Shown here: positions 6,318 to 59,119 of the stretch, in pieces
Numbering within the stretch: position 1 is the stretch's first letter
Layout of the letters: each line of letters starts with the position of its first letter
Sequence record: NC_028927.1
Strand: one strand, 5' to 3'
Length of the DNA: 64,000 nucleotides
Source of the DNA: Escherichia phage slur02
The notes under the pieces: model-generated
What the model was told of the DNA's origin: nothing
The model's input: the letters and a program-made list of their open reading frames with translations, nothing else
Databases searched by the model: none
Position numbers and translations under genes: made by a program

Positions 6318-6814
6318 AAAGTTTTAATAACCTCTATAATATCGTCTTGAGAAAGACCATTAATTAAAATATGATGTTCAGCCGGAGATTTAGAAATTTT
6401 AAAGCATGCCTCAACATCTTCTGCCATATCCGATGCGCTACGATTTGGATTACTAATTCCAAGACGATGTTTTCCCGTTAAAGGATTAACGATGATATAG
6501 CATTTACAGCTATTGATATGAACATTAGGTTGAGTCTGATTAATGAACACTTCACAATCATACTTAGCGAGTTGATTTTCTAAAAAGACTTTCATCTCTT
6601 CAACCGCATCAGGAAGCATATCACGGGCTTGCTCAAGACGACGATTTCGATATTCTTTAATGGTCGTTTTCCGCTTGACTTGCTTAGCTAAATCTTTCTT
6701 AAGATCGGTGATATATCCAACTCGACGATTTCCTTTAAATACAGAAATCCCATCTGTAGTATCACCGTATGCTTCAACGACCATTTCAGTAGTAATAAGC
6801 TGCAAATCCATCAT
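6308..6814 (-). CDS. alc: probable Alc (host transcription terminator on dC-DNA), 168 aa ORF
   Basis: Size and position (between pseT region and rnlA) match T4 alc; no motif confirmation. Confidence 0.5.
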   Translation of the reverse strand: MMDLQLITTEMVVEAYGDTTDGISVFKGNRRVGYITDLKKDLAKQVKRKTTIKEYRNRRLEQARDMLPDAVEEMKVFLENQLAKYDCEVFINQTQPNVHINSCKCYIIVNPLTGKHRLGISNPNRSASDMAEDVEACFKISKSPAEHHILINGLSQDDIIEVIKTLCN

Positions 6815-15554: not shown

Positions 15555-15797
15555 TCAAATAGACTTTTTCACAATTTTCCAATCAGCTTTAAACTGATCG
15601 ACGTCAGAGTGATAAATCCAAAATCCTGCGCTTTCTCCGTCTTCATAAAGAGGACATCCATCGCATTCATCTTCCCACCCCATATCGCGTAAAAGGTGTT
15701 CAGCTTTTTCAACAAGCTCAGAATCTTTACCGATGATATTAAAATACCATTTACCTCTAACTTCTGAATCTTTGATGCTCTGGCGTTGTAATCTCAT
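15555..15797 (-). CDS. hypothetical protein (80 aa)
   Basis: ORF track. Confidence 0.5.
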   Translation of the reverse strand: MRLQRQSIKDSEVRGKWYFNIIGKDSELVEKAEHLLRDMGWEDECDGCPLYEDGESAGFWIYHSDVDQFKADWKIVKKSI

Positions 15798-15908
15798 TTT
15801 ATTCTCCTTAGCAAGCTTTAATCAAAAGATATAAACAGACCAACATAACTGCTGCCATAATATAAGGTGCGAACATTTTCTTTTCTCCATTAGTTTTGAT
15901 AGGGTAAT

Positions 15909-33795: not shown

Positions 33796-33836
33796 TTTCT
33801 AATCTCCGTAATTCTGTATCAGTAGTTGATAGTTGT

Positions 33837-33866
33837 ATAGTACCACAGTATGCTTTGGTTGTAAAC
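33837..33866 (-). promoter_or_regulatory. T4-type early promoter for motA (GTTTAC-N18-TACTAT)
   Basis: Minus-strand GGTTTACaaccaaagcatactgtggTACTATAcaactatcaactactgatacag; near-identical to promoters at 16635 and 37703. Confidence 0.55.
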
Positions 33867-33875
33867 CGTTTTGTG

Positions 33876-33916
33876 AAAAAAATTTTAAAATAAAAAGGGA
33901 GAGCCAAGGCTCTCCC
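33876..33916 (-). terminator. terminator hairpin (GGGAGAGCC-AAGG-CTCTCCC) + T/A-rich run
   Basis: 8 bp GC stem read directly, immediately upstream (on minus strand) of the motA early promoter. Confidence 0.6.
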
Positions 33917-33921
33917 TAAAA

Positions 33922-37465: not shown

Positions 37466-37680
37466 TAATCCGCTAAAAGATCGACGATTGCATCACGAAG
37501 ACACTTATTCGCAATACGTTTAAGAGCAATTTCAGTTTCTGGAGCATTTTGAATAATCATCGAATTCAACTCAGCCTCAGCAAACTGAAGTTCTTTAACT
37601 AGTTCAGCTTTATATTTCCCTTGCCCTTTCTTAGCCTTTGCCCGTTTTAATTCAGCTGTAGTAAACATTTTATTCTCCAA
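37462..37680 (-). CDS. hypothetical protein (72 aa)
   Basis: ORF track; early promoter upstream. Confidence 0.5.
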   Translation of the reverse strand: MENKMFTTAELKRAKAKKGQGKYKAELVKELQFAEAELNSMIIQNAPETEIALKRIANKCLRDAIVDLLADY

Positions 37681-44933: not shown

Positions 44934-45353
44934 TTATTCCTTAAAGTGTGCTTTCAACATCTGATACAAGGACCATGCCTGTTCATTATTTTCAATAGTA
45001 ACTTTCATGACCGGGAATTCTGTGAAATCTTCTATTTGTTCTTGCTCTTCCTGCTTTTGCTCTTCGGACGCTTGATATGGATTTCCAACTTCGTCAAAGA
45101 ACTCTGCTTCATTCGTGGAGAGCCAGATAAAGTTTTCATCAAGGATATCACCGCCTGTTGCGTATCCAACCGTGCCAGTAGATGTCACAATTTTAGTAGG
45201 ACGACTGAGATGGTCAACATCTAAAATTTTAAAAGGTTCCATACCTAAACGTCGTGCGTAGATTCCGTTATCAGTATGGTCTTTAATAAAAGCTTCTTGA
45301 GCTTGTTTATTTTTAAATTGATACCATTTATTAACTTCAAATCTAATAGCCAT
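44934..45353 (-). CDS. hypothetical protein (139 aa), possibly goF-like
   Basis: ORF track; size close to T4 goF, not verified. Confidence 0.5.
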
Positions 45354-45568
45354 TAATAAATTTCCTTCCAGTAAGTTGTACCGTCTTCAGTGATTTCACG
45401 GAATACACCATAAATCGGTTGTTTATCACCAACCTTTTCATACACATAAACCGAAGTCAAGTGAGTAAACTTGATGGTGTGTTCCTTTTGAACTACTACC
45501 AAATCTGGATCGAATAATACATCTTCAAATTCGTCATTAGTACAATTCTGAACAATTTTACGTTTCAT
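45353..45568 (-). CDS. hypothetical protein (71 aa), possibly cef-like
   Basis: ORF track; size and position only. Confidence 0.5.
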
Positions 45569-45581
45569 TACAATTTCCTCA

Positions 45582-45863
45582 TTAATTAAACAGTGGAGCG
45601 ATGCGTTTCAGAAGAGTAGCAGCACCTTTGGCGAATTTTACATCATGAAAAACAGTTTCTTCTTCCGTTACAACACGAGCTTTAATGTTTTCACAATCCC
45701 AATTTTTGCGAACAATCTTCAAAAGCTGCAGTAAATCTTTACATTCAGCAATATCGATAACACATCCACGAGAATCTTCCATTATCGCACGATAACCGTA
45801 AGCCATACCATAATCGTTGAAAGATTGCTCGATGATAATTAAGTTTTCCATTTTATTCTCCAA
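45582..45863 (-). CDS. hypothetical protein (93 aa)
   Basis: ORF track. Confidence 0.5.
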   Translation of the reverse strand: MENKMENLIIIEQSFNDYGMAYGYRAIMEDSRGCVIDIAECKDLLQLLKIVRKNWDCENIKARVVTEEETVFHDVKFAKGAATLLKRIAPLFN

Positions 45864-45873
45864 GTTGTTTTCT

Positions 45874-45918
45874 GTATCAGTAGTTGATATTGATATAGTA
45901 CCATAATCAACTACTGAT
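45874..45918 (-). promoter_or_regulatory. early-promoter-like -10 (TACTAT) bracketed by a perfect 13-bp inverted repeat
   Basis: atcagtagttgat ... atcaactactgat read directly with TACTATA between the arms; no canonical GTTTAC -35. Confidence 0.4.
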
Positions 45919-45948
45919 GTATATAGTTTTATGAAAAAATTTTAAACT

Positions 45949-46437
45949 TTATGCATAGAGAGCATTGCTATAGTGTTTAATCCAACTTTCAGGAATGACT
46001 TTGTATGTTCCTAAAAATACCACATTGTATAACTTAACGCCATCTTCTACCCATTGATCGGTAATATATCCACACATAGCACGAGTATAAGCAGCCTTTC
46101 CATCATCTTTGATAAATTTAAATTCGCAAGGAGCAATGAACTTAATAGCTTGACCGAGTTTCCACTTAAAGTCTACGCCTACATGTGAAGTATCAATCGT
46201 TTCAATTACTTTAGCAGGAACAGCTTTCAAAAACGCAGATTCAAGAAATTTCGCACGAACATAGCCAAACTGGGGTTTAGACTTTCCATCTTTAGGAATG
46301 ATACGCACTTTTACTTCAGAATCTTCATCTTTAACGCCATGTTTAAGCTGAATGCTTACAATTTCGACCAATTTTCCTGCTGCTTTAGAGCGGGATTTAT
46401 CAGATACACGAGCTAATTCACCAATATTAATAATCAT
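45949..46437 (-). CDS. hypothetical protein (162 aa), possibly MotB-like
   Basis: ORF track; 162 aa matches T4 MotB size; shares a C-terminal motif with the next ORF. Confidence 0.5.
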   Translation of the reverse strand: MIINIGELARVSDKSRSKAAGKLVEIVSIQLKHGVKDEDSEVKVRIIPKDGKSKPQFGYVRAKFLESAFLKAVPAKVIETIDTSHVGVDFKWKLGQAIKFIAPCEFKFIKDDGKAAYTRAMCGYITDQWVEDGVKLYNVVFLGTYKVIPESWIKHYSNALYA

Positions 46438-46510
46438 AGTTATTTCTCACTTGTTAAAAAGATTTTATACTCCGCGGGACCATTATACTCTGGTCCCAAG
46501 AGTTTGTAAA

Positions 46511-46948
46511 CTAGCTTACACGAACATTAATCACTGCGCTGCGAGGAACTACGGAGTACTCTCCAGCATGAACTACATTAAGAAGTTCAACGCCATCTTC
46601 AATCCACTGGTCAGTTACCCAACCGCCAATCGGATTCGCGAATGGACGACGAATATAAACTGCCTTACACAACAAATCAGTCGGGTCTTCAGGTTTTTCA
46701 ATTTCTGTCAATAGACTAAAATCTTTTTCATAAATAATAAGCGGTGATACCATTCCATAATAGTTTCTAATTTCAATATACATCATACCGATAAGAATTC
46801 CGCTATTAACACTAATAACAGTAAAAGGATATCCGCCAGTTAAACCAAGAAGTTCACAAAACTTATTATGAGCTGTATTAGACAGTACCGAAAAATTCTT
46901 AATTTCATCAAATTTTTTCAATTGATAAACAGCATTATTTTTAATCAT
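46511..46948 (-). CDS. hypothetical protein (145 aa), C-terminal paralog of the preceding ORF
   Basis: Shared motif W/Y-x-TDQW-I/V-EDGV-x-L-x-NVV seen in both translations. Confidence 0.5.
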   Translation of the reverse strand: MIKNNAVYQLKKFDEIKNFSVLSNTAHNKFCELLGLTGGYPFTVISVNSGILIGMMYIEIRNYYGMVSPLIIYEKDFSLLTEIEKPEDPTDLLCKAVYIRRPFANPIGGWVTDQWIEDGVELLNVVHAGEYSVVPRSAVINVRVS

Positions 46949-47490: not shown

Positions 47491-47520
47491 TAATACCACA
47501 ACTAACCGAGGAAGTAAACA
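47491..47520 (-). promoter_or_regulatory. T4-type early promoter (GTTTAC-N18-TATTAT)
   Basis: Minus-strand GTTGTTTACttcctcggttagttgtggTATTATaacacc. Confidence 0.5.
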
Positions 47521-59110: not shown

Positions 59111-59119
59111 GCTTGTAAA

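Follow-up and report, generated by a model that had tools for sequence, protein, structure and literature searches.

A probable RNA stem-loop laid over a predicted early promoter downstream of motB in T4-like phages

Introduction

A perfect inverted repeat that encloses the -10 element of a promoter may be a binding site for a protein, the trace of a rearrangement or the stem of an RNA structure. Which of these applies is the question raised by a palindrome in Escherichia phage slur02 (NC_028927.1). The initial annotation of the 64,000-nt stretch of this genome that we analysed as a whole (the window) suggested that it could be an operator for a dimeric DNA-binding protein or a rearranged promoter cassette.

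Results

Gene setting of the palindrome

The window comes from a T4-like phage of the genus Tequatrovirus. A megablast search with positions 45400-46500 matched 522 records, nearly all from phages of Escherichia, Shigella and related enterobacteria; Escherichia phage slur04 is 100% identical. The palindrome is located in a 97-nt spacer between motB and an 89-aa ORF, which is followed by cef. The local genes are encoded on the minus strand, so the palindrome must be read on that strand. The features of the locus, in the direction of transcription, are:

46482..46510, minus strand: early promoter of motB, TTTACA-17-TATAAT, from which read-through RNA probably originates, with its own spacer/leader hairpin around it
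45949..46437, minus strand: motB (name from annotated relatives), the upstream gene, whose transcripts would cross the palindrome
45582..45851, minus strand: 89-aa ORF (phrog_3720, function unassigned), downstream of the palindrome, deleted in T4 and several relatives
45353-45568, minus strand: cef (name from annotated relatives)

The terminator scan found no terminator-like site from the motB promoter (46510-46482) up to the palindrome. Transcripts of motB should therefore read through and carry both of its arms. The T4 records NC_000866 and AF158101 list coding sequences only and hold no promoter features here.

The ORF list gives the 89-aa ORF as a 93-aa frame with a TTG start at 45863. This start is probably wrong because the ATG at 45851 is 6 nt past GGAG (10 nt from G to A). 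The C-terminal motif of MotB (...TDQW[IV]EDGV.L.NVV...) is common to the 145-aa ORF upstream (46511-46948, minus strand), which places motB in a tandem array of paralogues; the promoter at 46510 serves motB and the one at 47518 is located farther upstream.

Geometry and fold of the inverted repeat

The perfect 13-bp inverted repeat described initially was confirmed, with ATCAGTAGTTGAT at 45876-45888 and its exact reverse complement ATCAACTACTGAT at 45906-45918. The distance between the arms had been given as 19 bp and is actually 17 nt, so the feature starts at 45876, and the start of 45874 assigned to it was 2 nt too low. Read in the sense direction, the structure consists of the following parts:

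45906..45918, minus strand: 5' arm (sense) ATCAGTAGTTGAT, made up of the last -35 base and the first 12 bases of the 17-nt promoter spacer, about -30 to -18
45891..45903, minus strand: inner 5-bp helix UGGUA/UAUCA with one G-U pair and a CUA loop, from fold prediction
45876..45888, minus strand: 3' arm ATCAACTACTGAT, which would be +1 to +13 of the site's own transcript if the start is A45888 (from spacing)

Pairing extends inward beyond the perfect arms, the 13-bp stem being separated from the inner helix by a 2x2 internal loop. When the inner pairs are counted, the arms are 20 nt long and show 85% complementarity. The stem is AT-rich, and its 13 perfect pairs include four G-C pairs. It represents the longest perfect inverted repeat (loop 3-30 nt) across the 64-kb window. 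A first-order Markov simulation predicts 0.13 repeats with arms of at least 13 per 64 kb, so the palindrome by itself is only mildly beyond chance; it is convincing because it is invariant in aligned relatives and recurs at other promoters, as described below.

The sense RNA from 45850-45935 has a folding energy of -20.8 kcal/mol (z = -5.9), and none of 200 shuffled sequences was equally stable. In a comparison of the two strands, the sense strand folds better (-20.2 versus -18.0 kcal/mol) because the inner helix uses a G-U pair, which weakly supports a role at the RNA level. The tail 3' of the stem, ACAGAAAACAAC, does not contain a U-tract, so the hairpin is not a canonical intrinsic terminator. 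Consideration of an intrinsic terminator on either strand led to its rejection, as an adjacent T-run is absent and the terminator scan made no call. A known RNA family was rejected likewise: a search of 45300-46600 with Rfam covariance models gave no relevant match, the lone snoRNA match, located elsewhere, being at chance level (E = 0.99).

An early promoter is predicted between the arms

The sense strand carries a series of promoter-like elements and, downstream of them, a ribosome-binding site:

45924..45948, minus strand: AT-rich block AAGTTTAAAATTTTTTCATAAAACTA, homologous to the one that precedes the motA promoter
45918..45923, minus strand: -35-like TATACA, with one mismatch to the local TTTACA; the same hexamer is found in the orthologous Dhakavirus promoters
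45895..45903, minus strand: extended -10 TGgTACTAT, with the hexamer TACTAT at 45900-45895, in the hairpin top
45851..45861, minus strand: GGAGAATAAAA, Shine-Dalgarno of the 89-aa ORF, fitting the strong RegB consensus GGAGRAYARAA at every position

The TACTATA sequence reported within the spacer is present on the minus (sense) strand, and TACTAT also serves as -10 of five other early promoters. It is preceded by TG at -15/-14, giving an extended -10, and the distance between -35 and -10 is 17 nt. The view that an arm of the palindrome had taken the place of the -35 had to be abandoned: TATACA occupies the -35 position, and the arm overlaps its last base only. The 30 nt upstream of the -35 have an A+T content of 87%, and the length of the A/T run in this block differs from phage to phage. 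From the sequence spacing, transcription is predicted to start at A45888, where the 3' arm begins, 7 nt past the -10.

Early promoters of the window were collected by pattern scan and inspection, which resulted in 18 promoters, all on the minus strand and all with 17-nt spacers. A weight matrix was built from 17 of them, with the site left out, and applied to 127,860 positions on both strands. The site reached 35.2 bits and rank 13 of 127,860. All 18 early promoters score at least 24.8 bits, and the best non-promoter position scores 13.4. The -35 of the site contributes 4.1 bits as compared with a mean of 9.0 for the other promoters, while its leader contributes 9.0 bits versus 5.9 elsewhere. 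The -35 lacks the conserved second T, which would leave activity dependent on the AT-rich block and the TGn extended -10.

On the sense strand of the spacer between motB and the ORF, no positive matrix score was obtained except at 45923, and no other register of this spacer gave a promoter-like score on either strand. An upstream promoter GTTTAA...TATATA, which would place the whole hairpin in the 5' UTR, was rejected because TATATA is without the final T and the spacing shifts with A/T-run length between phages. We also rejected an antisense (plus-strand) promoter formed via TGATATAGT, for which the whole site scores 0.4 bits and a shifted register 9.9 bits. Published start-site maps or transcript-end data for this site were not found in the literature searched, and the eLife paper on T4 evolution does not mention it.

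The consensus for strong cleavage by RegB is GG*AGRAYARAA (PMC3014915). At the site, GGAGAATAAAA begins 15 nt past the last stem base, with GGAG at 45861-45858 and the ATG at 45851-45849. The pattern GGAGRAYARAA has three copies in the window, where 0.43 are expected, and all of them read GGAGAATAAAA on the sense strand (15797-15807, 37668-37678 and 45851-45861, minus strand). The copies at 45861-45851 and 37678-37668 are situated in early-gene leaders, just before the ATG.

Relationship to the motA promoter

A copy of one arm had been noticed at the motA promoter, and this proved to be an exact third copy, just past the -10, at 33818-33830.

33812..33865, minus strand: paralogous early promoter of motA, sharing TGGTACTATA and ATCAACTACTGATACAGAA with the site; its -35 is GTTTAC and its spacer is not complementary

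The site can be aligned base for base with the motA promoter through the AT-rich block, the -35, the 17-nt spacer, TGgTACTAT and ATCAACTACTGATACAGAA:

AT-rich block: TTTAAAATTTTTTTCACAAAAC in motA, TTTAAAATTTTTTCATAAAAC at the site
-35 region: GGTTTAC in motA, TATATAC at the site
17 nt from the -35 region to GTACTATA: aaccaaagcatactgtg in motA, atcagtagttgattatg at the site
-10 region: GTACTATA in both
5 nt after the -10 region: caact in motA, tcaat at the site
Leader: ATCAACTACTGATACAGAA in both

The 13-mer arm corresponds largely to the conserved initial transcribed sequence of early promoters, ATCAACTAC. In view of this alignment and of the early-promoter score, the description as a 'rearranged promoter cassette' in the initial annotation was close to the evidence.

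Four minus-strand promoters (37731, 33865, 16663 and 45923) belong to one subfamily, with TTTTTTCAYAAAAC in common upstream and TGGTACTATA...ATCAAC downstream; 16663 diverges in the last element. Related cassettes with nearly the same leader precede an unrelated 87-aa gene in Carettavirus phiE142, Mosigvirus phi25-307 and phage EC.W2-9. At 33890-33917 on the minus strand, a hairpin of the classical terminator type (AGGGAGAGCC-tt-GGCTCTCCCT, then a T-run) immediately precedes the AT-rich block and the GTTTAC of motA's promoter. This is the layout, with the hairpin upstream of the promoter, given for the promoter-early stem-loop (PeSL) cassettes of T4/PST by Comeau 2014 (PMC4122927).

Self-complementary promoters elsewhere in the window

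Spacer and leader of every one of the 18 early promoters were paired in their best duplex, and this was compared with all cross-combinations. Spacer and leader pair at -14 kcal/mol or lower in seven of the 18, the site included:

-35 starting at 59119, 47518, 46510, 45923, 37006, 6871 and 3546, minus strand: the seven self-complementary promoters

The six promoters besides 45923 pair at -14 to -23 kcal/mol. Only 8.5% of the cross-pairings reach -12 kcal/mol, and the observed mean pairing was matched by none of 20,000 permutations. Each of the seven has its own, different arm sequence. The 3' arm contains the Shine-Dalgarno at 47518, 37006 and 6871, but not at the site under study. At these three promoters read-through RNA would thus hide the ribosome-binding site, and RNA from the promoter itself would not.

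Conservation and plasticity within Tequatrovirus

Twelve Tequatrovirus sequences, including T4, RB51 and IMG/VR contigs, were aligned. Absence of the palindrome from relatives had been named as a point against its significance. It is present in all 12, with arms and loop invariant except for the loop of phage Pinarejo. The -10 and the TG are invariant in 11 of the 12, and the bases just 3' of the stem and the upstream A/T run vary. As the arms never vary within the genus, strict base-pair covariation cannot show there. Identity over the 85-nt region reaches 95% or more in 484 of the 534 phage records that match it; the IMG/VR scan yielded seven motB loci only. T4 has the identical element (NC_000866.4 positions 6582-6624, complement).

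Most of the 89-aa ORF is deleted in T4, and several other phages show the same loss. The deletion junction reads ATGGAAA(A)TT[CT]GC, and a short frameshifted remnant is left (T4 locus 1484-1653). In RB51 (FJ839693.1), motB and the identical element are separated by an additional motB paralogue, ORF010c (1387-1930), so that this element stands behind a different upstream gene. A GCATAA motif is duplicated at the RB51 junction, which is consistent with insertion or loss of a cassette beside the element. The ORF losses and the extra gene of RB51 identify the setting as a plastic region.

In phage Pinarejo (PP925831.1, about 430-475; window 45889-45905), the arms are intact and the 17-nt loop is exactly reverse-complemented. 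The flipped loop presents TGaTATAGT at the same position as TGgTACTAT and scores 24.8 bits. This flip, found in one of 514 full-length records, may be a real inversion of the hairpin loop or a sequencing artefact.

Orthologous promoters in other genera

In Dhakavirus (C6, MN04 and one IMG/VR locus, the latter put in this genus by sequence similarity), the promoter has the form TATACA-17-TAAGAT or TACTAT, with the arms GGTAGGGTA and TACCCTATC around the -10. The Mosigvirus promoter (ST2, PNJ-9) is TTTACT-16 or 17-TACTAT, and its arms TTCTCCTCT and AGAGGAGAA reach the Shine-Dalgarno of cef. When the spacers of these cef-side promoters were shuffled, at most three of 500 shuffles paired as well in each case. 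Gaprivervirus has a hairpin, GATAGGGT...GCCCTATC, at the same place; a search by eye only revealed no evident promoter at this junction. Across genera, arm sequence and register differ and the stem bracketing the -10 persists (Dhakavirus, Mosigvirus). This pattern is that of a design re-created, not of homologous pairs strictly covarying.

Discussion

The palindrome downstream of motB probably encodes an RNA hairpin stem that is superimposed on an early promoter of sigma-70 type, in a composite PeSL-type cassette between motB and the next gene. It is from the anatomy of the site, its promoter-like score, the stability of the fold, the conservation and the recurrence of the design that we infer promoter activity, the start site and a role of the hairpin. 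RNA initiated at the motB promoter would carry both arms and form a 13 + 5 bp hairpin just past the motB stop codon. RNA initiated at the promoter inside the hairpin would have the 3' arm alone, at its 5' end, and form no hairpin, providing unstructured mRNA for the 89-aa ORF and cef. A transcript boundary is the most likely role of the hairpin. Read-through might be attenuated or paused there, or the 3' end of motB mRNA might be protected after RegB has cut GGAG 15 nt downstream.

It is unlikely, in our estimation, that the hairpin alone is functional, with the promoter being a decayed relic ('half PeSL') and the RNA stem-loop acting in processing, stability or attenuation of a polycistronic transcript from motB to cef. 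Degraded PeSLs have been described (Comeau 2014, PMC4122927), the -35 appears degraded from GTTTAC to TATAC with 4.1 bits against the mean of 9.0, and in Gaprivervirus the junction has a hairpin where no promoter was found by eye. However, the score of the whole site is well within the promoter range, the TG of the extended -10 is present and, like the -10, invariant in 11 of 12 aligned relatives, and Dhakavirus keeps TATACA and a TAnnnT -10 despite a different spacer and leader. A function at the level of DNA rather than RNA, namely as a cruciform or a hotspot of recombination or template switching, for cassette shuffling or promoter switching, would agree with the indel-rich region and with the exact inversion of the 17-nt loop between intact arms in Pinarejo, and PeSLs have been proposed as recombination linkers (PMC2839356, PMC4122927). 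We consider it quite unlikely. The flip is confined to one of 514 full-length records and is more plausibly a by-product than a function; the deletion junction of T4 is inside the ORF and not at the palindrome; and the sense strand is favoured by the fold because its inner helix requires a G-U pair. Furthermore, cruciforms are poorly extruded from 13-bp arms separated by a 17-nt loop.

The operator reading, in which the two 13-bp half-sites are occupied by a dimeric phage or host protein that acts as repressor or activator of the intervening promoter, is suggested by the perfect dyad symmetry, by arms that flank the -10 and are invariant within the genus, and by the same 13-mer at +1 to +13 of the motA promoter. 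That 13-mer, however, is largely the conserved initial transcribed sequence. Each of the other six hairpin promoters has an arm sequence of its own, so there is no common operator, and in other genera the orthologous promoters pair through different sequences; a half-site conserved across paralogous and orthologous sites was not found. Half-site centres 30 bp apart are atypical for a dimer, and we know of no sequence-specific repressor of T4 early promoters. Given the varied arm sequences, this spacing and the fold bias towards the sense strand, the operator first proposed is not supported and is, in our view, very unlikely. Chance or hitch-hiking, with the repeat as a functionless by-product of promoter duplication or of template-switch 'correction' of quasi-palindromic arms, is a very improbable explanation: the element is invariant while adjacent bases vary, the design is present at seven of 18 promoters with none of 20,000 permutations as good, and it occurs in three genera with different sequences. 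In its favour, 0.13 perfect repeats of at least 13 bp are expected per window and one arm is simply the conserved promoter leader. Template switching can also perfect quasi-palindromes, as was reportedly found by Ripley in work on T4 rII.

Among known systems, the element belongs to the PeSL-type design and does not constitute a new regulatory principle. In some PeSL subclasses the stem-loop overlaps the -10 or is placed between it and the -35 (Arbiol et al. 2010, PMC2839356); terminator-like activity was shown for one GC-rich PeSL stem, and analogous elements with weaker, AT-rich stems exist in T-even phages (PMC2839356). The site shares with PeSLs the intergenic order of AT-rich block, predicted sigma-70-type early promoter, stable stem-loop, Shine-Dalgarno and start codon (ATG), as well as the repetition of related copies in the genome and the position in a hyperplastic region beside indels, and its stem overlaps the -10. 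It differs in that the stem is AT-rich and not of the GGGG/CCCC type, and in its weakened -35. The stem-loops published for T4/PST sit just upstream of the promoter (Comeau 2014, PMC4122927), whereas that of the site surrounds the -10. The repeats at the internal-protein locus of T-even phages, as cited in PMC2839356 from Repoila et al. 1994, likewise combine T4-type early promoters with weaker, AT-rich stem-loops of variable size; according to the same source this locus is plastic like that of the site, but it is a different one.

The T4 genes e, soc, 49 and I-TevI have a promoter within the sequence specifying the 5' strand of an RNA helix, such that the long read-through RNA folds and the RNA from the inner promoter does not (PMC3014915). 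The site resembles them in having its 5' arm in the promoter spacer and its -10 in the hairpin top. In contrast to the predicted early promoter of the site, their promoters are late or middle, and their helix hides the Shine-Dalgarno or AUG. Neither Shine-Dalgarno nor start codon is paired in the helix of the site, where the stem ends at 45876 and the Shine-Dalgarno starts at 45861, so the documented hiding of the ribosome-binding site does not apply here; the Shine-Dalgarno is included in the helix at 47518, 37006, 6871 and the Mosigvirus cef promoter. With intrinsic terminators the site shares a stable stem-loop directly past a stop codon, but it differs from them by the missing U-tract, the AT-rich stem and the lack of a call by the terminator scan. 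A palindrome likewise flanks the -10 in the cruciform-regulated promoter that Horwitz and Loeb reportedly engineered in 1988, where extrusion would silence the promoter and which is said to have needed longer arms and high superhelical stress.

As a tentative and rather doubtful extension, promoter-embedded hairpins might serve T-even early transcription throughout the genome as a device with two isoforms, in which mRNA from a gene's own promoter is open and read-through mRNA is closed. Neighbouring cassettes would thereby be insulated from one another in translation or decay. At the site, the hairpin together with the consensus RegB site 15 nt downstream would then give a protected 3' end of motB mRNA, and the promoter would tolerate inversion of the loop; the Pinarejo flip keeps TGnTAnnnT in place. 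Since the element is identical in T4, it is directly testable in the best-studied lytic phage. Annotators should expect such conspicuous palindromes at T4-type promoters as ordinary components of these cassettes and not take them as evidence for a repressor. If the two-isoform reading is true, a control principle of a few late genes (e, soc, 49, I-TevI) would extend to a large fraction of early promoters, and this would help to explain how T4-type phages can arrange many small early genes head to tail, each with a promoter, without cross-talk.
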